From the NCBI GenBank assembly GCA_021781215.1, contig JAJXXC010000002.1, positions 147,371 through 211,370 on the forward strand: a stretch of DNA of 64,000 bases, read 5' to 3'. This DNA comes from a bacterium (GTDB lineage: Bacteria > Patescibacteriota > Saccharimonadia > Saccharimonadales > DATKHC01). Of this stretch, positions 2,404-61,336 are shown in pieces. The notes under the pieces are model-generated. The model did not search any database, was not told where the DNA came from, and saw only the letters and a program-made list of their open reading frames with translations. A program made the position numbers and the translations under genes. Each line of letters opens with the position of its first letter. The stretch's first letter is position 1.

Positions 2404-3789
2404 TTAGACATATAGTCGCTCCTTGATTTCTTTTACAGCTGTTCTGATCTGACCGTTTAAGCCAATTTCTCTCTCTATTTTGTCAACTGAATGAATGGCT
2501 GTAGTGTGGTCTTTGCGACCAAGCTCATGAGCTATTTTAGGAAAACTTAGGTGAAGTTCACTACGAAGAATATACATAGCAATTTGTCTTGGCATCACAA
2601 TATCTTTATCTCGCTTAGGCCCCATAATATCTTCAAGAGCGATTCTAAAATGTTTAGCAGTCTTATCCACCACCTGTCTTGGGTTAATGTGTTTTGGTCG
2701 GGTCTGGTTGCTGCTAAGTAGGTTCATCGCAATATCTAGGTTGGGCGAAATCTCACGCATCTCACAAAAAGCCAACAGCTGATTAAGTACACCCTCGAGC
2801 TCTCTAATGTTGGTTTGGATTAACTTGGCAAGATACTCTACTATGTCGTTTGTTAGAACAATTCCCTTATCATGGGCTTTGCTTTGAATAATTGCACACC
2901 TAGTTTCAAAATCCGGGGTTTGCATATCAATAGTCATGCCCCAAGCAAAACGGCTTCGGAGTCTTTCTTCTAGGGTTGGAATATCTCTTGGCGGTTTGTC
3001 GCTGCTAATAATAATTTGTTTATTGGCTTGATGTAGGGCATTAAAGGTATGGAAAAACTCTTCTTGCATCTTTTCTTTGCCAGCAATAAATTGAACGTCG
3101 TCAATAATCAACACATCGACGCTGCGATAGTTTTGAGCAAACTCATTAGTCTTTTTGTATCTCAAAGCACTAACAAATTCTTGGACGAACTGTTCTGAAG
3201 AAATATAAACTACTTTTTTATCTGGCTGATTTTTAACAATACTATTACCCACAGCTTGAATTAAGTGGGTTTTGCCAATACCAACACCACCATAAACAAA
3301 CAAGGGGTTATATTTGGTTCCCGGTATATTACTAATTGACATACAGGCGGCGTAGGCTAGCTCGTTGCCACTGCCAACCACAAAGTTCTCAAAAGTATAC
3401 TTCTCGTTAAGGCCTTGTCTGTAATCATGAGAATATGGGCTGGACGGGGCTGATACGGTTAGATGAGCTGGTAGGGGGTCGTCAGAGCTGGTTGTAGTCT
3501 TTGGCTCAAACTGTTTAGCCTCAACTTCTACTGGGTGGTTACTGCCAAAGGAATGAATCTTAAAGTGCAGACCTTCAGGTTTTACGCCATTTTTTTGTAA
3601 CAACTCAGAGATTAGGCCAGTATATTTGTTTTCCAACTGTTGTTTAATAAAGACGTTAGGGACCCCTACGACAATTACCCCACCCTTATTTTTAAGTAGA
3701 GTAGTTTGCTTGAACCAGGTTAAATAACTAGCATGTGAGACACTAAGTTCAACTTCACCAAGTACAGCCTGCCACAGATTATCCTGCAT
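2404..3789 (-). CDS. dnaA: Chromosomal replication initiator DnaA
   Basis: 461 aa. AAA+ Walker A GGVGIGKTHL, Walker B LIIDDVQF, and C-terminal DNA-binding region ..GRKDHTTAIHSVDKI. GAGGGAG Shine-Dalgarno about 12 nt upstream. Confidence 0.97.
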   Translation of the reverse strand: MQDNLWQAVLGEVELSVSHASYLTWFKQTTLLKNKGGVIVVGVPNVFIKQQLENKYTGLISELLQKNGVKPEGLHFKIHSFGSNHPVEVEAKQFEPKTTTSSDDPLPAHLTVSAPSSPYSHDYRQGLNEKYTFENFVVGSGNELAYAACMSISNIPGTKYNPLFVYGGVGIGKTHLIQAVGNSIVKNQPDKKVVYISSEQFVQEFVSALRYKKTNEFAQNYRSVDVLIIDDVQFIAGKEKMQEEFFHTFNALHQANKQIIISSDKPPRDIPTLEERLRSRFAWGMTIDMQTPDFETRCAIIQSKAHDKGIVLTNDIVEYLAKLIQTNIRELEGVLNQLLAFCEMREISPNLDIAMNLLSSNQTRPKHINPRQVVDKTAKHFRIALEDIMGPKRDKDIVMPRQIAMYILRSELHLSFPKIAHELGRKDHTTAIHSVDKIEREIGLNGQIRTAVKEIKERLYV

Positions 3790-4085
3790 ATCTTTCTTTA
3801 AACTCCCTCACACTTTTTAGATTTAAAAGTTTATATCAATCACTATACCGACTTTGCGGTGACTTTTCCACAGGGAAATTAAAACCAATTTTTTATAAAC
3901 CATAAATTAGTCTTACAAGAGTAAAAGTTGTACACATTAATAGTCAACACCTATAAAGTCGTGGAAAACATTTGGGATTTAGTGGAAAAGCTGATACTAT
4001 TAGCGCATAAATATTGTTAATTTCACGCCGAGACAAAATCCGGTTTGACTAACAACTAACAAAGCCAATAAACTTATATAACATT
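3790..4085. promoter_or_regulatory. oriC candidate / DnaA-box cluster between dnaA and rpmH
   Basis: TTTTCCACA at 3864..3872 (+). TTTTCCACG (minus) at 3960..3968. TTTTCCACT (minus) at 3981..3989. A 296-bp non-coding AT-rich spacer between divergent dnaA and rpmH, the classical origin position. Confidence 0.6.
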
Positions 4086-4223
4086 ATGCCAAAGCGAACC
4101 TATCAACCAAAAAAACGTCATCGAGCTCATGAGCACGGATTTATGAAGAGAATGGCTACCAAAGCCGGTAGGTCAGTTCTTAAGCGTCGCCGAAATAAGG
4201 GACGAACTAAACTTAGCTACTAA
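4086..4223 (+). CDS. rpmH: 50S ribosomal protein L34
   Basis: Too short for the ORF track. My translation is [45 protein letters not shown] (45 aa, TAA at 4221..4223), the canonical L34 sequence. Followed by rnpA. Confidence 0.95.
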
Positions 4224-4242
4224 TTTCATCTATACTAATTAA

Positions 4243-4587
4243 ATGATTAGTCGAGAGAATAGATTCCATGGTCATGGATCACTAAAATATACCTATCGCA
4301 GGGGAGAAACCATTAGGGGACCGCTGTGTTCAACTAAGTATGTATTCAATCCTCGCCGAGATAAATACAGACTCGCAGTAGTTGTTAATAAGAAAGTAAA
4401 TAAGTCAGCAGTGGTTAGAAATAAAATTCGGCGGCAAATATACGAGGTTGTTAGATTGATCTCAGAACAAATTAATAGTCCTTGCGATTTGGTAATTACG
4501 GTTTTCAGCGATCAGATTCTAGAAATTAGTCACGATGAGCTAGTAGTAATGATAAAAGCCCAGTTTAGCCAGGCCAAAATTATTTAA
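4243..4587 (+). CDS. rnpA: Ribonuclease P protein component
   Basis: 114-aa basic protein immediately after rpmH. Contains KSAVVRNKIRRQIYEVVR, matching the RNase P protein RNR-type motif. Confidence 0.9.
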   Translation: MISRENRFHGHGSLKYTYRRGETIRGPLCSTKYVFNPRRDKYRLAVVVNKKVNKSAVVRNKIRRQIYEVVRLISEQINSPCDLVITVFSDQILEISHDELVVMIKAQFSQAKII

Positions 4588-4634
4588 TAAACGACCCGAA
4601 CTAGTAATAAAAAGTATGTTTTAACACCGTATAG

Positions 4635-8905: not shown

Positions 8906-9135
8906 CTATAGTATTCTAACACCCCTAGCAACCGACGTGATCTACGGATGCACTAAATGATTCACCCTATGAATTAACTAATATTTATATAAACAGATAA
9001 AAACATCGAATATTTTATCGCCTTTTACTATTTATATAAATATAGAGACATATATTATTTTATTTTTTATTCCAAGAGGTATATAGTGCAAATTAATAGA
9101 AAGTGGTGGTGGCCTTCTCTAGCCTAGGTATCATC

Positions 9136-9975
9136 ATGAACAAAAAAACGTCAAAAACAACTAACAAGCAAGCAAGTAGTAGTTTAACTCCAAGATCAGT
9201 AGTGATTACTAAGCAGCAATTACTAATATTAACTAGGATATATAATTTTAGATTTGTTAGTACGGCTCAATTGCAGCAATTATTAGCCAAGAAGCAACTT
9301 CAACAAGTCCAACAACGATTGAATTTATTACTTAAACGTGGCTATATTGGTCGAAACTTTAGCAATCAGGATAGATTAACTGGCAGGTATGCTTCCTATT
9401 ATCTTTTACCAAAGGGCATGAAGGTCCTCAGGCAACATCAAATTAAACTAGATGTTAAATTAAATTCTAAAGTACTCCACAATATTTATAAGGACAAAAC
9501 TGCCTCCACCAGGTTTATTAATCATTGCCTCGGCGTAGGAGACATTAATTGTCATTTAAAGCGGTTGTACGGCGAGGATATCGAATTTATTTCTAAGAGC
9601 AAATTAGCAGACTATGATTTCCTGCCCAACCCTTTGCCAGATGCCTTTATAAGACAAGATAAAACCCAAGAATATTTTCTTGAATACTGCGAAGAGATAG
9701 TACCTTTTTTTGTATACAGAAAAAGAATTAAACAATATGTTGAGGTATATATTGAGGAGGGAGCCTGGAAAGATGCAACTGGCACAGAATTGCCAACCAT
9801 ACGACTGGTTGCTGAAACGCCGGTACTACAAAGAAGACTAAAAAGATTTATTACCAAGTACCTTAATAATTTATATATGGGCACAGGTGCTAGATTCTTA
9901 ATAACCAACCTGGAACGGCTTAAAACCTCGGATAGCCAATTTATATGGAGTGTAATAATCCAAGAAGAAGAGTAG
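9136..9975 (+). CDS. Replication-relaxation-like winged-helix protein (hypothetical)
   Basis: ORF track starts at GTG 9103; ATG at 9136 (MNKKTSK..) is more likely. ITKQQLLILTRIYNFRFVSTAQLQQLL....QQRLNLLLKRGYIGR resembles the N-terminal wHTH of the Replic_Relax family. Flanked by long AT-rich spacers. Confidence 0.4.
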   Translation: MNKKTSKTTNKQASSSLTPRSVVITKQQLLILTRIYNFRFVSTAQLQQLLAKKQLQQVQQRLNLLLKRGYIGRNFSNQDRLTGRYASYYLLPKGMKVLRQHQIKLDVKLNSKVLHNIYKDKTASTRFINHCLGVGDINCHLKRLYGEDIEFISKSKLADYDFLPNPLPDAFIRQDKTQEYFLEYCEEIVPFFVYRKRIKQYVEVYIEEGAWKDATGTELPTIRLVAETPVLQRRLKRFITKYLNNLYMGTGARFLITNLERLKTSDSQFIWSVIIQEEE

Positions 9976-41398: not shown

Positions 41399-42718
41399 AT
41401 GGACAAATCTTTAACCTCAAGACTGGTTAGTATAACTAAAATAGTTGTATTAATAATTTTACTACTAATGCCGTTCCATGAGTTTCTGACTACTTGGCTG
41501 GCTAGTAATTTTGGTCATATCTATTTATTTAGAATTTGGAAAGAGATAGTTTTATTACTAATTAGTCCGATAATTATTTATCTAGCATTAACTAACAAGA
41601 ATCTAAAAAAGTGGTTATTAAAAGATAAATTGATTCGGTTAATTCTACTATTCACAGTTATAGCGATTATATTAGGCATAGTCGGATATTATCAGAAACG
41701 AGTTAATCTGTCGGCTCTAGCGGTAGGGGCAATAATTGATCTTAGACTGTTTTTAATATTTTTGTTTAGCCTAGTCATCACTTACTACAGCGACTTCTTT
41801 AAGAAATACTGGAAACAAATATTGATTTATCCAGCCTTAGCAGTAATAGCTTTCGGTATTGCTCAGTTATTTCTACCGATAGATTTTTTGAGACATTTTG
41901 GTTACGGCCCAAATACTATTCCAGCCCTTCAGACCGTTGATCAGCAGCTAGGCTTGCACCGTATCCAATCTACGCTTCGTGGCGCTAATCCGTTTGGTAC
42001 CTACTTGATACTAATTGCTCCAATATTCATTTTCTTTAGCACTAGGGATCGAATAGTCAGGATAGTCTCTAGTTTAATCTCACTAATTGCTATGTTTTTC
42101 ACCTATTCAAGAAGTGCCTATATTGGTCTAGCAATTACTATCGGAATAATCTTCTACTATTTAAAATTTGAGAATAACCCATTCTTCATTAAATATAAAA
42201 AAGTGGTCTATTATTTGATCATTGGGGTAGTGATATTGGCTATTGCTGGCCTTCTAGCTTTTCGCAATAATCCAACTTTCGATAATATCTTTTTCCATAC
42301 TAATAAGTACTCTAAAGCCAGTACCTCATCCAATAGCGTCAGGCTATCTGATTTAAAGACTAATTCTATGAATATGATTGACCATCCTCTGGGCCAGGGA
42401 CTTGGTGTTGCCGGTCCGGCATCGGTGCACAATAACCACCCAACGATGATTGCTGAGAATTTCTATATTCAAATTGGTCAAGAGACCGGTTTGTTGGGGC
42501 TAATTATCTTCCTAGCAATTAACATCATTGTGGGCTATAGATTATTCGTACAAAGGCGAGACCCATTGTCACTATTCTTGCTGGCGAGTTTAGTTGGCAT
42601 CTCGGCAGTCAACATGGTTTCGCATGCTTGGGCGGATGATACCTTGAGTCTAATGTGGTGGGCGCTTGCCGGTGTGGCGCTTAGCCCTAAATTAGCTAAG
42701 ATCAAGGCTAATCAATGA
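41399..42718 (+). CDS. O-antigen ligase / Wzy_C-family polytopic membrane protein
   Basis: 439 aa with about 11 predicted TM. Central FTYSRSAYIGLAITIG followed by an extracytoplasmic loop, typical of the Wzy_C (WaaL/PglL/WsaB) family. Confidence 0.7.
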   Translation: MDKSLTSRLVSITKIVVLIILLLMPFHEFLTTWLASNFGHIYLFRIWKEIVLLLISPIIIYLALTNKNLKKWLLKDKLIRLILLFTVIAIILGIVGYYQKRVNLSALAVGAIIDLRLFLIFLFSLVITYYSDFFKKYWKQILIYPALAVIAFGIAQLFLPIDFLRHFGYGPNTIPALQTVDQQLGLHRIQSTLRGANPFGTYLILIAPIFIFFSTRDRIVRIVSSLISLIAMFFTYSRSAYIGLAITIGIIFYYLKFENNPFFIKYKKVVYYLIIGVVILAIAGLLAFRNNPTFDNIFFHTNKYSKASTSSNSVRLSDLKTNSMNMIDHPLGQGLGVAGPASVHNNHPTMIAENFYIQIGQETGLLGLIIFLAINIIVGYRLFVQRRDPLSLFLLASLVGISAVNMVSHAWADDTLSLMWWALAGVALSPKLAKIKANQ

Positions 42719-43179
42719 AAACCTGGGCAAAAATCCAGCTCAAGATACGAGAAGGCGAGAAGAAGAGCTATAAGCAGGTGATTAATTATCTAATAGGCGG
42801 CGGTTTATATTTTATTACCGGATACCTAACTTTTTATTTGCTATATCATTTTCTGAATTGGACACTATTTTATGCCACGATTATTTCTAACGTTGTTGGC
42901 TGGACAGTTAATTATTTTATCAACCGATTCTGGGTATTCGAGCACCCTTCGTTGAAAAAAAACGCATTAAAAATTTCTACCAAATATACCATTTTGACAT
43001 TAGCCGATTTTTTAATTAGTTATTTAATTCTTAAAGGACTCAAAGCTATAGGGATTAGTCCGTATATTGGCCAATTTATCTCAGCCATTGGCTTTTTTAC
43101 TATTTGGAATTATTACTGGTATAAACTCTGGGTATTTAAAGTGCCATCAGGTAAGCTAAAATCAAATATAATTATATAG
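42715..43179 (+). CDS. GtrA-family membrane protein
   Basis: 154 aa. INYLIGGGLYFITGYL and WNYYWYKLWVF hallmarks. ATGA overlap with the upstream gene. Confidence 0.75.
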   Translation: MKTWAKIQLKIREGEKKSYKQVINYLIGGGLYFITGYLTFYLLYHFLNWTLFYATIISNVVGWTVNYFINRFWVFEHPSLKKNALKISTKYTILTLADFLISYLILKGLKAIGISPYIGQFISAIGFFTIWNYYWYKLWVFKVPSGKLKSNIII

Positions 43180-43182
43180 ACT

Positions 43183-43212
43183 ATGGTAGAGGTCATTCAG
43201 CCAACTAAAAAC
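43183..43212 (+). repeat. Ghost copy of the 5' end of the lexA-like gene (direct repeat, left copy)
   Basis: AGACTATGGTAGAGGTCATTCAGCCAACTAAAAAC versus AGACTATGACAGAAATCATTCAGCCAACTAAAAAAC at 44466..44501. Exact 19-nt core TCATTCAGCCAACTAAAAA at 43193..43211 and 44481..44499. The ghost reads MVEVIQPTKNIKNRYFLK then stop. Confidence 0.85.
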
Positions 43213-43241
43213 ATAAAAAACCGATATTTCTTAAAGTAGAC

Positions 43242-43271
43242 TTTACAAATTATCGGGATATTTTGTATAAT
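43242..43271 (+). promoter_or_regulatory. Sigma-70-type promoter of the ATPase gene
   Basis: TTTACA (43242..43247), 18-nt spacer, TATAAT (43266..43271), then 9 nt to ATG 43281. Confidence 0.55.
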
Positions 43272-43280
43272 ATAGATATT

Positions 43281-44450
43281 ATGTATATACACAGAGACGT
43301 AGAAGATCAGCTAAAAAATTTCTTAAAAGATGATAAAATCGTTATTTTATTAGGTGCTAGGCAAGTAGGCAAGACGACCATGCTAGAACCTTTTATACAA
43401 AACGCTAAAGGTTTGTTACTCAATTGTGATATAACCGTTGATAAAAATAGGCTGATGGCTGCGAGCACCCTAGCGCCAGATGAGGCTATGAAATTTCTTG
43501 GTAGTCCATCATTAATTGTTATTGATGAAGCACAGAATTTGCCTGATATTGGTAGAATCGTAAAAGGTTGGTACGATGCTCATGTTGCTACTAAAATTGT
43601 CTTACTTGGATCATCTAGCCTTGATTTATTAGACCTTACAGCCGAACCATTAACTGGTCGAAATGAGAAACAGTATCTAACCCCACTTTTGTTCTCGGAA
43701 ATTCTCAAGAGCCAGGCTTGGTATTCACTTCATATAACTCAGAATATGTTAAAAGAGCAGTTTAATAGCCAGATTCAAACCTTATTACTCCAGCAAATGG
43801 TTTTTGGTTCATATCCGGCTACTGTCACCTCTGGTGATAAAGAAAAATATCTGCTAAATTTGACCTCAGATTATCTTTTAAAAGATGTCCTCCAGGGTGG
43901 ACTCGTAAAATCTCCGGAACCTGTTAAGCGATTACTTGAGGCTTTAGCACACCAGTCTGGGGGTGAGGTGGTTATCGATGAGTTACAAAAAATGTTACGA
44001 ATATCTAGACAAACTATAGAGAGCTATTTAGATTTATTGGAGCGTTCTTATGTCATTTTTCGGGTTAGAGCCTTTAGTACAAATCAACGAAAAGAGATCG
44101 CGAAGACTTCAAAAATATTTTTCTGGGATACGGGAATAAGAAATGCCTTGCTGAAGGAATTCTCTATTTCTCCCTCACGCAGTGATATAGGCTTACTATT
44201 TGAAAATTGGGTAATTGCTGAAATCGCAAAACAAAACCTAATGTCGGGTAATAGAAATACATTGTATTTTTGGCGTAAAATTGAAGGCAGTGAGGTTGAT
44301 CTCATAGTTAAGGGGACTAATACATTTAAAGCCTATGAATTTAAGTGGTCAAAACAGAATCCAACGTTTGGGTCTAAAAGCTTTACCAATACATACGATA
44401 TCCCGGTCGAAATTATCACAAAGGATACGGTCATCGATCTGTTAATCTAA
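43281..44450 (+). CDS. AAA+ ATPase, AAA_14 + DUF4143 architecture
   Basis: The track start TTG 43263 lies inside the -10 box; ATG at 43281 (MYIHRDVEDQ..) is more likely. Walker A GARQVGKTT and Walker B LIVIDEAQ. C-terminal ..FENWVIAEI...EVDLIV region typical of DUF4143. Confidence 0.8.
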   Translation: MYIHRDVEDQLKNFLKDDKIVILLGARQVGKTTMLEPFIQNAKGLLLNCDITVDKNRLMAASTLAPDEAMKFLGSPSLIVIDEAQNLPDIGRIVKGWYDAHVATKIVLLGSSSLDLLDLTAEPLTGRNEKQYLTPLLFSEILKSQAWYSLHITQNMLKEQFNSQIQTLLLQQMVFGSYPATVTSGDKEKYLLNLTSDYLLKDVLQGGLVKSPEPVKRLLEALAHQSGGEVVIDELQKMLRISRQTIESYLDLLERSYVIFRVRAFSTNQRKEIAKTSKIFFWDTGIRNALLKEFSISPSRSDIGLLFENWVIAEIAKQNLMSGNRNTLYFWRKIEGSEVDLIVKGTNTFKAYEFKWSKQNPTFGSKSFTNTYDIPVEIITKDTVIDLLI

Positions 44451-44470
44451 AATATAAGGATAATAAGACT

Positions 44471-44926
44471 ATGACAGAAATCATTCAGCCAACTAAAAAA
44501 CAAAGAGAGCTACTGTCGTTTATTGAAGGGTTCATTGAGGCGCATGGCTATAGCCCAAGTTATCGCGAAATTATGGCTGGGTTGAATTATACGTCCGTGG
44601 CTACAGTTTCATTGCATATTAATAATTTAATTAATCGAGGCCATTTAGCTAAGCGAGATCGATCTGCTAGATCGCTATACCTAATAAAACCAAGCCTAAA
44701 GATCAGTGGCGTTAAGACTAATCAGATTAAACCAGAAGAAGAGAAATGGTTAGTTAAAAAAGTCGAATATTATTTTGAAAAAGTCGAAGCGGCGTCAGTA
44801 ATTGAATCTAGCTATCTTGATGAGCTATATGTTTTAGTCGGTGCCCTAAATGTCTTGGGTCTGATTGGTGCCGCTCAGAGTTTTATGCCAAGGTTAACCG
44901 AGCTCAAGGCTAGACGAGATCTGTAG
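44471..44926 (+). CDS. LexA-type winged-helix DNA-binding protein lacking the S24 peptidase domain
   Basis: 151 aa. PTKKQRELLSFIEGFIEAHGYSPSYREIMAGLNYTSVATVSLHINNLINRGHLAKRD matches the LexA N-terminal DNA-binding domain. The C-terminal 70 aa have no Ser/Lys dyad motifs. Confidence 0.65.
   Translation: MTEIIQPTKKQRELLSFIEGFIEAHGYSPSYREIMAGLNYTSVATVSLHINNLINRGHLAKRDRSARSLYLIKPSLKISGVKTNQIKPEEEKWLVKKVEYYFEKVEAASVIESSYLDELYVLVGALNVLGLIGAAQSFMPRLTELKARRDL
44904..44921 (+). repeat. 18-bp exact direct repeat, left copy (3' end of the lexA-like gene)
   Basis: TCAAGGCTAGACGAGATC, identical to 45692..45709. The two copies bracket one TA operon. Confidence 0.9.
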
Positions 44927-44952
44927 CTGATGCCTGATTTAATTTCTGGAGT

Positions 44953-45216
44953 TTATCTATAAAGCTGGCTGTGTGTACCGCAAGCAACAAACCAAGCTAC
45001 GGTTTCATTATCAGTAAGCTCAAAATGAGCTCGCCAGTCACCCCCAAAAGCTATAGAACGATAACCTTTCCATTCACCTGTCAGCGGGTGATTATATAAG
45101 TCAGGATGTTTCGGTTGGTTTTGAAATAGCTTGATTGCTTCTTCTAGTCGCTTTTTTTGTGCTGGTTTTAAACTAACTGCTTGCTTAATGAAATCCTTGT
45201 GAAGCTTGATGATCAT
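44953..45216 (-). CDS. Type II toxin, RelE/YafQ-family mRNA interferase
   Basis: 87 aa. NHPLTGEWKGYRSIAFGGDWRAHF......GTHSQLY fits the RelE/YafQ pattern. 4-nt overlap with the upstream antitoxin. Confidence 0.8.
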   Translation of the reverse strand: MIIKLHKDFIKQAVSLKPAQKKRLEEAIKLFQNQPKHPDLYNHPLTGEWKGYRSIAFGGDWRAHFELTDNETVAWFVACGTHSQLYR

Positions 45217-45491
45217 TGCAAGTTTTTAAAGAAATCATCTAGTTCGGCTTCATTATTAATAGTAGTGTAGTTACGACCCGCTTTACGATCCGCCAAGGCC
45301 TCACGCATAATCTTTTCGAGGTAAGGAGTAGGTTCAAGCGTAGGTGATAGTACTACGCGGCCTTCTTTAACTGCTTGCTTTAAGACAACAGTAACAAATG
45401 CGCTGACGGATAGGCCAACAGAATTAGCGAATTCGGTAATATCTTTTTTTGTCCTATCATCAGTCCTAATACTTAGTAATGCGTTGCTCAT
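45213..45491 (-). CDS. Type II antitoxin, RelB/DinJ-family ribbon-helix-helix
   Basis: Start taken at ATG 45491 (MSNALLSIRTDDRTKKDITEFANSVGLSVSAFV..), 9 nt downstream of a consensus promoter. The track start at 45512 would lie inside that promoter. Confidence 0.75.
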   Translation of the reverse strand: MSNALLSIRTDDRTKKDITEFANSVGLSVSAFVTVVLKQAVKEGRVVLSPTLEPTPYLEKIMREALADRKAGRNYTTINNEAELDDFFKNLQ

Positions 45492-45500
45492 AATGATTAC

Positions 45501-45530
45501 ATTGTATAGCAATTGTCATCTATATGTCAA
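45501..45530 (-). promoter_or_regulatory. Promoter of dinJ-yafQ-like operon 1
   Basis: The minus strand reads TTGACA, 18 nt, TACAAT, then 9 nt to the ATG. Flanked upstream by the 9-bp-arm palindrome ATGCATTTT/AAAATGCAT (45532..45555). Confidence 0.55.
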
Positions 45531-45691
45531 TATGCATTTTCGTATTAAAATGCATGACGGTAATGCTTATAGTAAATCATATGTATAGGTTATTATCACA
45601 AATCGAGTAGCCATAGTCACGGTGTTATTACTTATTCTTATTTCGCCTTAATGATCCTAGTAGTTGCCGTGGAATACTTTAGGGATTGAAT

Positions 45692-45709
45692 TCAAGGCTA
45701 GACGAGATC
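45692..45709 (+). repeat. 18-bp exact direct repeat, right copy
   Basis: TCAAGGCTAGACGAGATC, identical to 44904..44921. Confidence 0.9.
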
Positions 45710-45771
45710 CGTTGGTATTTAACTTGTGCCGTAGAATTTGCCGAAAAAGACTATGGGCGTGAAAATTTTCC

Positions 45772-45800
45772 TCGACTAAGTCTAACTCACGCATTATAAT
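45772..45800 (+). promoter_or_regulatory. Candidate promoter of the phd-like gene
   Basis: TCGACT, 17 nt, TATAAT (45795..45800), then 7 nt to ATG 45808. Confidence 0.45.
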
Positions 45801-45807
45801 CGAATCC

Positions 45808-46062
45808 ATGAATAAAGTTATTACTATCCATGAGGCTAAGACCAATCTATCGAAGTATATAAAACAAGCTAGAACCGGTGAGCCAGTTTATATCGGTGGA
45901 TACGGAATACAAGAAGTGGTTCTTGTGGCTGCAAAACCCAAGAATAGTGTTATTAAATTTGGCACCGCGCAGAGTAAAATACAATACATTAACAGCACAC
46001 TAGAAGGAGCTGACCCAGATATACGGCAAATGTTTTACGAGGAAAGCCAGGCCTTAAATTGA
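45808..46062 (+). CDS. Type II antitoxin, Phd/YefM family
   Basis: 84 aa. MNKVITIHEAKTNLSKYIKQARTGEPVYI is the typical Phd/YefM N-terminus. Confidence 0.8.
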   Translation: MNKVITIHEAKTNLSKYIKQARTGEPVYIGGYGIQEVVLVAAKPKNSVIKFGTAQSKIQYINSTLEGADPDIRQMFYEESQALN

Positions 46063-46145
46063 ACCCTTTATTAGACACCAATGCTCTTGTCTAGATACTC
46101 GCATGGGCACATATAGAAAACTCGAACTTATTAATTTCAGATTAA
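46059..46145 (+). pseudogene. Decayed PIN-domain (VapC-like) toxin remnant
   Basis: TTG overlaps the phd stop (ATTGA). Reads LNPLLDTNALV, then stop (TAG 46092..46094), then ILAWAHIENSNLLISD, then stop. LLDTNAL is the first acidic PIN motif. Only about 28 codons remain. Confidence 0.45.
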
Positions 46146-46206
46146 ACACTTTTAAACTTAGGTCTTACCTATGTCATGAATGCTTTGATATTTTCATTAT
46201 CAATAT

Positions 46207-46235
46207 TTGACATATTCATACAAAATCTATACAAT
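46207..46235 (+). promoter_or_regulatory. Promoter of the RHH-PIN operon
   Basis: TTGACA (46207..46212), 17 nt, TACAAT (46230..46235). Followed by a 26-nt leader with AGGAGA Shine-Dalgarno before ATG 46262. Confidence 0.55.
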
Positions 46236-46261
46236 ATACCCATAATATACTAGGAGAAGAA

Positions 46262-46489
46262 ATGGCTACAAAAACTCTCAATATTGCACTAGACGAAGAC
46301 TTGTTAAAAAAGATCGACGTTGCGGTTAAGAGTGACTTTGGAAATCGAAGTGAATATTTCCGTCGTCTGGCATTATCTGATCTTGAGCGTCGAAATCGTT
46401 GGTCTCAACTTTTCACCGCTGGCCATGAAGTTGGCAAGAACATGGGTATTACTAGCGAACGGCAAGTGTATGATATCCTGAACAAATAA
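46262..46489 (+). CDS. Ribbon-helix-helix (CopG-like) antitoxin
   Basis: 75 aa. KTLNIALDEDLLKKIDVAVKSDFGNRSEYFRRLALSDL is an RHH fold pattern. Immediately upstream of the PIN gene. Confidence 0.75.
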   Translation: MATKTLNIALDEDLLKKIDVAVKSDFGNRSEYFRRLALSDLERRNRWSQLFTAGHEVGKNMGITSERQVYDILNK

Positions 46490-46490
46490 T

Positions 46491-46934
46491 ATGGCAATCG
46501 ATAAAAATATTCGAGTTGTTATCGACAGTAACGTCTGGATATCTGGTTTAATTTTCGGAGGCCAACCAGAAAAAATCATTAAACATTTTTTAGATGGTAA
46601 TTTTTTGGTGATAGTTAGCGCAGAACTATTGAGTGAATTAAGACGAAAAGTAATCGAAAAATTTCCATTATTCACATCAAGCCTAGAGTCGCTTGATGCC
46701 TCCATACTCAATGATGCAATAGTCGTAAGGCTTGGCAGCCAAACTATTAATATTAGTCGTGATCCAGATGACAATAAGGTTATTGAGACCGCTGTTATGG
46801 GGCGCTGTGATTATATAATTAGCGGCGACAAGGATCTTCTAGTAATCGGCTCCTATAAAAATATTAATATTGTTAACCCAACAGATTTTCTTAAAATCAT
46901 TAATAGAAACTATTCTATTACCGACAAGGAGTAG
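46491..46934 (+). CDS. PIN-domain toxin (PIN_3 / TIGR00305-type)
   Basis: 147 aa. VVIDSNVWISGLIFGG...SAELLSEL...SRDPDDNKVIETAVMGRCDYIISGDKDLL matches the family consensus closely. Confidence 0.85.
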   Translation: MAIDKNIRVVIDSNVWISGLIFGGQPEKIIKHFLDGNFLVIVSAELLSELRRKVIEKFPLFTSSLESLDASILNDAIVVRLGSQTINISRDPDDNKVIETAVMGRCDYIISGDKDLLVIGSYKNINIVNPTDFLKIINRNYSITDKE

Positions 46935-49008: not shown

Positions 49009-49269
49009 TTATTTGTATAATTGAGAGTGTTTTCCGACAGCAACAAATCTAGCCGTATCTTTATCTTGCTGGATGTAGTGCGCTCTCCAGTCACCGCCAA
49101 AAGCAATTGAACGGTGATTTTTCCATTCACCTGATAGTGGGTGATTATATAAATTTGGATTAGTCGGATCGTTTCGGAATATTATAATAATTTCTTCAAA
49201 TCGTCTTTTTTGCGTAATCGGTAGTTTAGAGTATTGTTTGATAAACTGTTTATGAAAAACAGTTTTCAT
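49009..49269 (-). CDS. Type II toxin, RelE/YafQ family (paralog of 44953..45216)
   Basis: 86 aa. NHPLSGEWKNHRSIAFGGDWRAHY......GKHSQLY. Roughly half the residues are identical to the first copy by eye. Confidence 0.8.
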   Translation of the reverse strand: MKTVFHKQFIKQYSKLPITQKRRFEEIIIIFRNDPTNPNLYNHPLSGEWKNHRSIAFGGDWRAHYIQQDKDTARFVAVGKHSQLYK

Positions 49270-49541
49270 AATGACCGTAAATATCCTAGCGTTTCTTCAT
49301 CGGTATCAGTTGATACTAGCTCTTTACTTATTCTATAGTCAGATTCAGCCTCTTTAATTATAGATTTAAGATAGGGGGTAGGTGTGAGATTGGTATTGAA
49401 TTCGACTTTTCCAGTCCTAAGTATCTGTTTTATTTGAGCATTTAATAAAGATGAAACCGGTAGACCAATTTGCTGGGCAAAGTTTTTAATCTGCTCTTTG
49501 GTTTCAGGATCAGTCTTGATGTTTAGTATAGCTGTGTTCAT
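49266..49541 (-). CDS. Type II antitoxin, RelB/DinJ family (paralog of 45213..45491)
   Basis: 91 aa. MNTAILNIKTDPETKEQIKNFAQQIGLPVSSLL. 4-nt overlap with the toxin gene. Confidence 0.75.
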   Translation of the reverse strand: MNTAILNIKTDPETKEQIKNFAQQIGLPVSSLLNAQIKQILRTGKVEFNTNLTPTPYLKSIIKEAESDYRISKELVSTDTDEETLGYLRSL

Positions 49542-59315: not shown

Positions 59316-60074
59316 ATGAGCAAATTAAATAAAAACAATAGAGGCTTTGGTGGTGTTGAGCTAATATTGATAATCGTTATAGTTGTATTAATTGGCGTAG
59401 TAGGATGGTTGGTTTACAAGAATCATAATAAAGTAGCCCCAACTAAGACTGCTGCAGTAAATAAAACGATTGCAAAGACAACTCAGGGAACATCTACTAA
59501 TAAAAGTGTTACTGCTAATCCTTATGCGGGCTGGAAAACATATAATTCTATCCTTAATAGCGGATTATCTTTTGAATATCCGGCGAACTGGGTATTTACT
59601 CCAGCGAACAAACCATTTACGAATAATAATGGTGGAGTCGAAAATGATTCTTCCTTAACTAGCGCTGTAGTCCAAACTAAACCTGGCGTAGCATCTAATG
59701 TAGCCACAAATCAATATATGTGTGTGTCATTTGATGAATATGGGGGAACTTGGTCATACGGTGGTTGGAATCTAGTACAAAACTACGGACCGTTATTATC
59801 AAGTGAAAGTTTCAAGGTTGGTAGCGTCAATCTTTCTTTGAATACATATCAGGGGTCTAGTCCCATGCTGGATACTATGGAGCTGGTAAGTGTTCCTCCT
59901 AGTAATCTTGGTAGCCAATACATTAATACACAAAATAATTTTTCGGTTATAGTACAAGCACAATTTAATTGTGGCCAGGGCGGTCAGTCTGGTATTACAA
60001 ACTTGAACGCTGATTTTAATAGTCAACCAGAAACTGCAATAGCTAAACTAATTATGAAGAGCATTAAGTTCTAG
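59316..60074 (+). CDS. Type IV pilin-like (prepilin-type N-terminus) secreted protein, atypical
   Basis: 252 aa. MSKLNKNNRG/FGGVELILIIVIVVLIGVVGWLVY has the G/F cleavage context with Glu at +5, followed by a hydrophobic helix. The rest is S/T/N-rich with two Cys near the C-terminus. Confidence 0.45.
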   Translation: MSKLNKNNRGFGGVELILIIVIVVLIGVVGWLVYKNHNKVAPTKTAAVNKTIAKTTQGTSTNKSVTANPYAGWKTYNSILNSGLSFEYPANWVFTPANKPFTNNNGGVENDSSLTSAVVQTKPGVASNVATNQYMCVSFDEYGGTWSYGGWNLVQNYGPLLSSESFKVGSVNLSLNTYQGSSPMLDTMELVSVPPSNLGSQYINTQNNFSVIVQAQFNCGQGGQSGITNLNADFNSQPETAIAKLIMKSIKF

Positions 60075-60179
60075 GCCTGATAAAATGATATTGCCTAGCG
60101 ATTGCCCATCGAATCTACCATCGCCGAACCGATAATTAAACAGGTTCCTGACTTCAGGATTATCGCTTAGAGCCACTAA
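60066..60179 (-). repeat. Left arm of perfect 114-bp inverted repeat (inverted copy of yvcK codons 63-100)
   Basis: The reverse complement of 60066..60179 equals 60536..60649 at 114/114 positions (checked 10-mer by 10-mer). It overlaps the last 9 nt of the pilin-like CDS and lies inside the 66-aa minus-strand ORF 60048..60248. Confidence 0.95.
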
Positions 60180-60349: not shown

Positions 60350-61336
60350 ATGATTCAAAATAGCCCTAGCATTGTAGTAATCGGTGGCGGTACTGGTAGT
60401 TTTACTATACTCAAGGATCTTAAAAAGTTTACTCCTAATGTAACGGCTATAGTTAATATGAGTGATGATGGTGGATCGAGCGGAGTCCTTAGAGATGAAT
60501 TAGGGGTATTGCCGCCGGGAGATATACGTCAATGCTTAGTGGCTCTAAGCGATAATCCTGAAGTCAGGAACCTGTTTAATTATCGGTTCGGCGATGGTAG
60601 ATTCGATGGGCAATCGCTAGGCAATATCATTTTATCAGGCCTAGAACTTCAACATCGTAGTCTAGGAAAGGCAATTCAGGTCTCCAGTGATATATTGCAT
60701 ATCATAGGTAGGGTTATACCAGTAACTTTGACTAAGCATGTCTTAGTTATGGAAGATGGCCCGACTACCATTAAGGGGGAGTATGAAATAACCAAAAGAG
60801 TTATCAAGTCTAAAAAACCTCTTATGCACCTAGAACCTATGGCTAAAATAAATAAAGAAGCAACTAAGGCAATTATGGATGCCGATTTAGTAGTTATTGC
60901 ACCCGGTAACTTGTATGGTTCGTTATTGCCAATTTTTAGTGTTAAGGGGGTTGCTGAAGCCATTGCTAGCTCCAAGGCTAAAGTCATTGAAATAGTTAAC
61001 CTAGTAAATAAGCCGGGACAGACCGATAACTGGCATGTGGCAGATTACGTTAATGAGCTAGAGAGATATATTGGCAAGGATCAAATTGACGTAGTTTTAT
61101 ATAATACCGAACCAATATCTAACGAGTTAATTGCAAAATATGCCGCCGATAAAGAGTTCCCAGTCAGCATTAATCCCACGCGCCTTAAGCGGATTGGGGC
61201 TAAACTAATCGGCACCCGTTTAGTCAGTAGGGAAATATCTGCCCAAGATCCAAATGATAAAAAAATTAGGCGGACATTAATCCGACACGACGGAGTAGAA
61301 ATTAGCAGACAGTTGATGAGAATCTATTATGAGTAG
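60350..61336 (+). CDS. yvcK: YvcK/CofD-like (UPF0052, gluconeogenesis factor family) protein
   Basis: 328 aa. VVIGGGTGSFTILKDLKKF...VNMSDDGGSSGVLRDELGVLPPGDIRQCLVALS is the family N-terminal signature. TGTTAGAAT extended -10 at 60335..60343, 6 nt before the ATG. Confidence 0.85.
   Translation: MIQNSPSIVVIGGGTGSFTILKDLKKFTPNVTAIVNMSDDGGSSGVLRDELGVLPPGDIRQCLVALSDNPEVRNLFNYRFGDGRFDGQSLGNIILSGLELQHRSLGKAIQVSSDILHIIGRVIPVTLTKHVLVMEDGPTTIKGEYEITKRVIKSKKPLMHLEPMAKINKEATKAIMDADLVVIAPGNLYGSLLPIFSVKGVAEAIASSKAKVIEIVNLVNKPGQTDNWHVADYVNELERYIGKDQIDVVLYNTEPISNELIAKYAADKEFPVSINPTRLKRIGAKLIGTRLVSREISAQDPNDKKIRRTLIRHDGVEISRQLMRIYYE
60536..60649 (+). repeat. Right arm of perfect 114-bp inverted repeat (within yvcK)
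   Basis: Codons 63-100 of yvcK (LVALSDNPEVRNLFNYRFGDGRFDGQSLGNIILSGLEL). Exact reverse complement of 60066..60179. Confidence 0.95.

Follow-up and report, generated by a model that had tools for sequence, protein, structure and literature searches.

The subject of this analysis is a lexA-like gene of an uncultured Saccharimonadales bacterium (assembly GCA_021781215.1), together with the short cassettes that lie on either side of it. The gene lies in a 64,000-nucleotide stretch of contig JAJXXC010000002.1 (positions 147,371 to 211,370 of the forward strand), which is called the window here and to which all coordinates refer unless a fetched comparison locus (L004 and so on) is named. From left to right, the locus holds a gtrA-like gene, an ATPase gene, the lexA-like gene, a toxin-antitoxin (TA) operon on the opposite strand and a phd antitoxin gene followed by a vapC remnant (Table 1). 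Both termini of the lexA-like gene occur twice: an inserted cassette lies on each side of the gene and has left a truncated duplicate of the nearby terminus on its far side, while the gene itself stayed intact.

Features of the locus and its two pairs of repeats

Table 1. Features at and around the lexA-like gene
Feature	Position	Strand	Remarks
gtrA-like membrane protein gene	42715-43179	+	Pfam GtrA_DPMS_TM; conserved left neighbour, 1-6 nt upstream of lexA in relatives
Relic copy of lexA 5' end	43178-43211	+	88% identical to 44466-44499; reads MVEVIQPTKN.., then unrelated sequence and a stop
Inserted cassette with one gene	43240-44452	+	Promoter TTTACA-18-TATAAT (43242-43271) and AAA_14/DUF4143 ATPase coding sequence (43281-44450; Pfam)
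Functional copy of 5' repeat	44466-44499	+	Start of the live lexA-like gene
lexA-like gene, 151 aa	44471-44926	+	LexA winged-helix DNA-binding domain only (Pfam LexA_DNA_bind PF01726, 50 bits, residues 8-67)
Direct repeat, copy 1	44904-44921	+	lexA 3' end in the live gene; 44900-44926 when extended, stop codon included
YafQ/RelE-family toxin gene, 87 aa	44953-45216	-	Pfam YafQ_toxin 35.0 bits (cutoff 30), ParE_toxin 27.4 (cutoff 23); NCBIfam RelE_StbE 38.7 (cutoff 27.9)
RelB/DinJ-family antitoxin gene, 92 aa	45213-45491	-	Pfam RelB 23.8 bits (cutoff 22.4); NCBIfam RelB_DinJ 32 bits, below cutoff
TA operon promoter TTGACA-18-TACAAT	45530-45501, in segment 45501-45531	-	Outer limit of conservation among cassette homologues
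160-nt segment inside the repeats	45532-45691		Starts with a 9+9 palindrome, ATGCATTTT-CGTATT-AAAATGCAT (45532-45555)
Direct repeat, copy 2	45692-45709	+	Dead relic of lexA 3' end; extended 45688-45714; 98 nt upstream of the phd start codon
phd/yefM antitoxin gene with promoter	45763-46062 (promoter TCGACT-17-TATAAT 45772-45800; gene 45808-46062)	+	Pfam PhdYeFM; orthologous to the gene after lexA in L064-L068
vapC (PIN) pseudogene remnant	46062-46145	+	NPLLDTNALV*ILAWAH..; in-frame stop where L065 has Trp; truncated after ~28 codons
Ribbon-helix-helix (RHH) antitoxin and PIN_3 toxin genes	46262-46489 and 46491-46934	+	Third TA module of the hotspot; common to L004-L007

The product of the lexA-like gene gave no match in its 151 residues to Peptidase_S24, the C-terminal autopeptidase with the Ser-Lys dyad, and it scores 49 bits against the LexA equivalog TIGR00498, whose cutoff is 111, so that lexA-like is the right name for it. 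Members of its family are 149-153 aa long, and all 20 that were aligned end at most 1-3 residues from the stop of the window protein. An alternative tail, obtained by reading through the second copy of the 3' end, had been proposed in the first-pass annotation. The translation itself (..KARRDPLVFNLCRRICRKRLWA*, a tail of 22 residues) is correct, but since the end of the family is conserved in position, this tail is not a family feature and gives no evidence of a former longer protein. Among LexA homologues more than 93% identical, where a long tail was looked for as the pre-insertion allele, none was found.

The repeat at the 3' end is the 18-mer TCAAGGCTAGACGAGATC, which occurs exactly at the two positions that had first been reported for it and has no third copy in the window even when up to three mismatches are allowed; it is therefore not a common motif there. 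Copy 1 covers the codons ..LKARRD and is joined to the gene body, on which side the normal Leu-stop ending is retained, and nothing lexA-like lies upstream of copy 2. When mismatches are allowed, the repeat grows to GAnnTCAAGGCTAGACGAGATCnGTnG, about 23-27 nt. The period between the copies is 788 nt, with 770 nt of DNA between them, and the sequence directly after copy 1 (TGTAGCTGATGC) resembles the native lexA end of L005/L006 (TGTAACTAAGC).

At the other end of the gene lies the longest exact direct repeat of the whole window, a 19-mer (43193-43211 and 44481-44499) contained in a 34-nt repeat that comprises 5 upstream nt and the first 29 nt of lexA. The relic copy directly adjoins the gtrA stop, which is the place of the true lexA start in every relative, and an AAGGA ribosome-binding site precedes the live start. 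The relics at the two ends have diverged from the live copies to a similar degree (4 of 34 positions at the 5' end and 2-4 of 23-27 at the 3' end). The left junction (43205-43226) shows a possible TAAAAAC/TAAAAAAC microhomology.

A chance match or an assembly artefact is the first explanation to be considered for such repeats, and it is effectively refuted. An exact direct repeat of at least 18 nt arose somewhere in 3 of 60 Markov-1 simulations of 64 kb, or about 5%, which agrees with the few percent estimated in the first-pass annotation and leaves some room for coincidence. The length of the 18-mer alone is thus not decisive; what makes the repeat locally improbable is the proximity of its copies. 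Repeats of at least 18 nt with copies no more than 1.5 kb apart arose in 1 of 300 Markov-2 simulations, yet the window holds two, both on the termini of the one lexA-like gene, and the repeat position coincides with the gene end of the orthologues. Both copies are also present in every independent assembly of this Saccharimonadales population, at least four in number (ENA ERZ27236897, NCBI GCA_021833525.1, Logan SRR13178630 and Logan SRR5080639) and made from different samples with different assemblers, and the repeat is therefore not an assembly artefact. Six contigs of the same species, 99.8-100% identical, vary at neither repeat. One 875-nt contig from a single sample (L019) corresponds to window positions 44911-45785, that is, to the TA segment only, and begins inside copy 1, which could reflect strain heterogeneity there. 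One further 18-mer repeat of the window is AT-rich, has its copies far apart and looks like chance.

If the TA genes had been the cargo of a non-autonomous transposon, a transposase could have made the repeat as a target-site duplication and would likewise have left an insert flanked by direct repeats, but this is effectively excluded. The ends of the insert have no terminal inverted repeats and transposase is absent; the repeats, at 18-34 nt (and 59-123 nt in the other loci described below), exceed known target duplications by far in length and in variability; and the 5' repeat is only 88% identical, with its differences clustered.

The cassettes and their homologues in other genomes

Between the copies of the 3' repeat, the toxin passes the RelE/YafQ profiles and fails the YafQ-specific TIGR00053 (47.5 bits, cutoff 87), and is therefore RelE/YafQ-like rather than a strict YafQ. 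With a RelE/YafQ-superfamily toxin above the thresholds, an antitoxin gene that overlaps the toxin start by 4 nt and a promoter of its own, the operon is predicted to be a type II TA system. Both its TTGACA/TACAAT promoter and the palindrome upstream of it were located as first annotated. The same annotation had equated the 770 bp between the copies with exactly one yafQ/relE-dinJ operon; this is indeed the sole operon there, but the conserved cassette covers only 44953-45531. For the remaining segments of 160 nt (45532-45691) and 26 nt (44927-44952), no source was found in any fetched locus, cassette homologue or relative. Folding of the palindrome segment is not unusual (z = 0.39), and no RNA family of Rfam matches within 43000-46400.

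Homologues of the relB-yafQ pair were found in a scan of species-representative genomes at 19 Saccharibacteria-type loci, with toxin identities of 56-89% and none of them beside lexA. Their DNA is similar to the window only between the toxin stop codon and the -35 box, and blastn homology to L022, L024, L027, L036 and others ends at 45530-45531. Given the unrelated contexts and the ending of similarity at the -35 box and the stop, the mobile unit is one promoter-to-stop operon. The ATPase cassette shows the same limits: its nearest homologues, 77-80% identical in amino acid sequence, were found in three unrelated settings, and their DNA is homologous to the window at 43240-44452 only, from -35 box to stop. 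No flanking repeats were found around these homologues in the other contexts. Over its full length the ATPase matches the PADLOC defence candidate PDC-S01 (E 1e-109). A second, diverged relB-yafQ cassette is present in the window itself at 49009-49541, between a Na/H exchanger gene and a CBS-domain gene (60% identity to the first for the toxin, 34% for the antitoxin); no repeat flanks it, and the same spot holds nothing in L012 and a PIN/MazE pair in L064.

Several of the relB-yafQ homologues are associated with tRNA genes. In L030, a tRNA-Ala gene, MNT-HEPN and relB-yafQ are set apart by three copies of a 71-nt element (2541-4425), composed of the last 8 nt of the tRNA-Ala, a terminator and flanking sequence, the last two copies sharing 123 exact nt. 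The arrangement in L037 is a tRNA-Arg gene, an open reading frame (ORF) and relB-yafQ with three repeat copies of 79 nt (3013-4414), and in L022 the cassette lies between two relics, 16-26 nt long, of the T-arm/acceptor end of a tRNA (3583-4598). Additionally, the cassette begins 8-30 nt after a tRNA-Gly gene in L033/L034, abuts a tRNA-Arg gene with a 22-nt inverted repeat in L029 and occupies the same tRNA-Ala hotspot in L026. From their sequence, the tRNA-end repeats of L030, L037 and L022 look like attL/attR-like islands in tandem, scaled to single operons. The array units of these three loci hold no integrase.

Two observations on the homologues stand apart. The 14-mer TTTTAATACGAAAA, which makes up the middle of the palindrome directly preceding the relB promoter (45536-45549), also occurs near the cassette-proximal end of each repeat copy of L030 (2656-2669, 3631-3644 and 4401-4414), either by chance or as a shared functional motif; it is the single lead to a source of the 160-nt and 26-nt segments. 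In L032, a Turneriella metagenome-assembled genome, a related relB-yafQ cassette is flanked by a 59-nt direct repeat (97%; 3630-3688 and 4421-4479), which includes a promoter-like region, the ribosome-binding site and the ATG of the downstream gene.

Gene order in relatives

The gtrA-lexA adjacency is found in L004, L008, L012, L064 and L069, and in every relative the ATPase gene is absent between the two genes. What follows lexA varies. In L064-L068 (LexA 80%) the order is gtrA-lexA-102 nt-phd-vapC, with no yafQ/relB between lexA and phd, and DNA homology to the window runs through lexA (44460-44915, 75%) and resumes at 45763-46082 (73%), a segment that spans the phd promoter, phd and the first vapC codons; the Phd proteins of the window and L065 share 70% of their amino acids. 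The closest relatives, L004-L007 (LexA 93%), read gtrA-lexA-RHH-PIN-Na/H exchanger and lack phd as well as yafQ/relB, so that the locus must have had a multi-step history. Elsewhere lexA is followed by an unrelated AAA_14 ATPase gene on the other strand (L008, LexA 88%), by a gene for a 230-aa protein (L012/L013, LexA 81%) or by another ATPase gene, on the plus strand (L069, LexA 81%). Variable genes thus gather downstream of lexA, and this space is a hotspot for them. The ATPases of L008 and L069 are unrelated to that of the window, and the association of AAA_14 ATPases with lexA hence recurs.

An empty site therefore exists at the level of orthologues, in the lexA-phd order of L064-L068, and the TA operon is entirely absent from this site in all relatives. 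Copy 2 lies 98 nt before phd, where the lexA of these relatives ends (102 nt), and is therefore a relic of the old gene end; it follows that the 788-nt period is inserted DNA. Taken together with the mobile homologues, the repeat pair reads as the scar of a DNA insertion into the gene end, and this insertion is well supported, as is the proposal of the first-pass annotation that the TA pair arrived at the end of the lexA-like gene as a discrete cassette. The 5'-side insertion may have been independent of the 3'-side one or may belong to the same episode.

Relics of their own lexA termini were not found in the relatives. Two candidates for further traces were set aside: a likeness between the L004 spacer downstream of lexA and window positions 45520-45579 was borderline (0-6 of 500 shuffles reached its score) and was not used, and a third lexA-end relic at the right edge of the phd-vapC segment (~46135-46165) was not significant. 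A metagenome scan with Phd returned only two distant relatives, at 49% identity. The phd antitoxin gene looks intact beside the vapC pseudogene, and the PIN gene has also been lost in L064 and L066 and kept in L065 and L068.

The gene orders also bear on an improbable single event, in which a single donor would have supplied a block of ~2.5 kb (43212-45691) with the present lexA, the ATPase gene and the TA operon, and this block would have taken the place of all but the two ends of the resident lexA. The old allele would survive as two stumps, the relics of 29 nt at the 5' side and 18 nt at the 3' side. The relics do lie symmetrically on the outer sides, contiguous with the native neighbours gtrA (left) and phd (right), they are similarly diverged from the live copies, and the recurrence of AAA_14 ATPases beside lexA would fit. 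The lexA-like gene, however, bears no foreign mark, being as similar to that of L004 (84%) as the flanks are (81.5% and 86%); no genome with an ATPase-lexA-yafQ block was found, and two illegitimate joints would be needed in one event.

Origin of the duplicated termini and relation to known systems

Regarding the enzyme behind the insertions, conservative att-type (Campbell) recombination is the explanation favoured here, with confidence that is about evenly balanced. The ancestral order would have been gtrA-lexA-phd-vapC, as judged from the relatives. A crossover between the chromosomal gene end and a small circular or episomal DNA bearing a short mimic of it would have produced attL and attR: a piece of ~0.77 kb with the self-sufficient relB/yafQ operon would have recombined with the last lexA codons, after which about 18-27 nt of the gene end would be present on both sides of the insert, one copy completing the gene and the other, inert, marking the former gene end ~100 nt before phd. 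The ATPase gene would likewise have been inserted at the lexA start, leaving the 34-nt relic attached to gtrA. The recombinase may have acted in trans, or its gene may have been part of a larger element of which decay has left only the addictive TA module. The relics would originally have measured about 23-34 nt and later drifted by ~10%, the exact 18-mer and 19-mer being the longest unmutated runs. Under this scheme, the circle (attP) junction would read ..GGGATTGAAT-TCAAGGCTAGACGAGATC-TGTAGCTGATG.., and the empty site would read ..AACCGAGC-TCAAGGCTAGACGAGATC-CGTTGGTATTT.. if it had a native long lexA tail, or ..GATCTGTAG followed by GTATTTAAC if the relic has mutated.

Att-type recombination is favoured because the repeats lie on the termini of conserved genes, because the gene is restored, because the flank of copy 1 is like the native lexA end of L005/L006, which is what incoming DNA with a mimic of the gene end would leave, and because of the tRNA-end arrays that accompany this cassette family. 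As in att-bounded elements, direct repeats stand at both boundaries, over the end of an intact conserved gene, and the site is empty in relatives. A number of points weigh against it. Neither the insert nor the surrounding 12 kb (~6 kb on each side) nor a further 20 ORFs of the window yielded an integrase or recombinase, and the cassette homologues share no common att core or arm sequence. Repeat lengths vary from 18 to 123 nt across loci, and in L030 and L037 the greater part of each repeat is outside the tRNA, on its downstream side. Among viral contigs, an exact-match scan gave one chance match for the 18-mer, in an unrelated GC-rich context, and neither the 19-mer nor the toxin had a match there; no circular form and no attP was seen. 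Two elements would each need to have decayed to a single operon almost flush with the att copies. Finally, the flank after the relic (CGTTGG..) has no stop codon, which calls for either two substitutions in the relic or an abnormal old tail.

The main rival, less probable than att-type recombination though a possibility of some weight, dispenses with a dedicated recombinase and invokes natural transformation followed by RecA-dependent short-homology or homology-facilitated illegitimate recombination (HFIR). Conserved lexA would have served as the homologous anchor, and the foreign far end would have been joined illegitimately a few nt inside it, giving the truncated duplicate of the terminus. 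In Saccharibacteria the com system confers natural transformability, and linear DNA is acquired through homologous recombination (PMC10633639); HFIR with 3-10-nt joints is established in other competent bacteria (PMC6382021). The absence of a recombinase and of a shared att core, together with the variable repeat lengths, would be expected under this rival; the two copies of the 5' repeat are homeologous (88%), their mismatches forming a cluster remote from the junction, as two alleles might show; the possible microhomology at the left junction fits; and the repeat-free ATPase homologues elsewhere indicate that duplication is not obligatory. Transformation would, however, require donors with the cassette already beside lexA, and none was found. 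Tandem repeats of tRNA 3' ends are the classical signature of integrases, and the repeats of L030/L037 are mainly non-conserved intergenic DNA, a poor anchor between strains. Published HFIR products, moreover, usually delete recipient DNA rather than duplicate it, and are not noted for terminal duplications.

With respect to known systems, the attL/attR repeats that bound genomic islets, prophage remnants and cis-mobilizable elements of the CIME type fall on the 3' end of a tRNA gene or a protein gene. The locus resembles such att-bounded islets in its gene-end repeats, intact gene, empty site in relatives and addiction (TA) cargo, and the related loci L030, L037 and L022 add tandem arrays with repeated att copies. 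It differs in that the unit is only ~0.77 kb and one operon long, no integrase lies inside or nearby, the copies of the cassette have no att core in common, and the gene bears a second scar at its 5' end, an unusual position for integrases. Integron cassettes, including the TA cassettes of superintegrons, are likewise units of a single gene or operon in arrays, commonly with TA cargo, and the repeats between units in L030/L037 recall them. No IntI was found, however, and there is no attI or conserved-core attC; the cassettes have their own promoters and occur in both orientations, and the repeats are copies of the end of the local target gene rather than a cassette-borne site.

The likeness to HFIR (de Vries & Wackernagel 2002, as cited in PMC6382021) lies in foreign promoter-to-stop genes beside a conserved gene in a transformable lineage, with possible microhomology at one junction and mobile-element genes absent; unlike the locus, the reported products normally have no terminal duplications, and the donor arrangement was not found. 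Xer-dependent integrating elements (IMEX) and pdif modules are integrase-less, use host recombinases, have duplicated sites of ~28 nt and form arrays, and pdif modules often carry TA genes; the repeats described here, in contrast, lie in gene termini and not at the terminus site. Dif-like repeats were rejected by inspection, as there are no two inverted 11-nt arms around a 6-nt spacer.

Two further features of the window are recorded separately. The only mobile-element-like protein among the window ORFs scanned is encoded by a Replic_Relax-domain ORF at 9103-9975. A perfect 114-nt inverted repeat (60066-60179 and 60536-60649), present in three independent assemblies (L070-L072), is an inverted copy of an internal piece of cofD (residues ~62-100) located 170 nt upstream of that gene, and may be an invertible segment or the relic of a rearrangement.

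Patescibacteria carry few recognisable mobile elements. The locus belongs to a general class that is already known, the small att-flanked islets, and is notable for its legibility, its paired scars and the hint of a cassette-array habit in Saccharibacteria, and it offers a base-resolved example of an ultra-small, host-dependent bacterium gaining accessory genes. Three TA modules and a defence-candidate ATPase gene cluster around one conserved regulator, each insertion preserving the gene through duplication of its terminus, and the relics date and order the events and define candidate recombination sites of 18-34 nt. A bolder and rather unlikely generalisation is that Saccharibacteria, and perhaps other Patescibacteria, have a regular process, integrase-independent or driven by host recombinases, for placing defence or TA cassettes, one promoter-to-stop unit at a time, at the ends of conserved genes such as tRNAs and lexA. 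Each event would duplicate 20-120 nt of the target, and small integron-like arrays would build up without an integron. Should the tRNA-end arrays around this cassette family go back to one mechanism, it would account for the movement of defence and TA genes among Patescibacteria.

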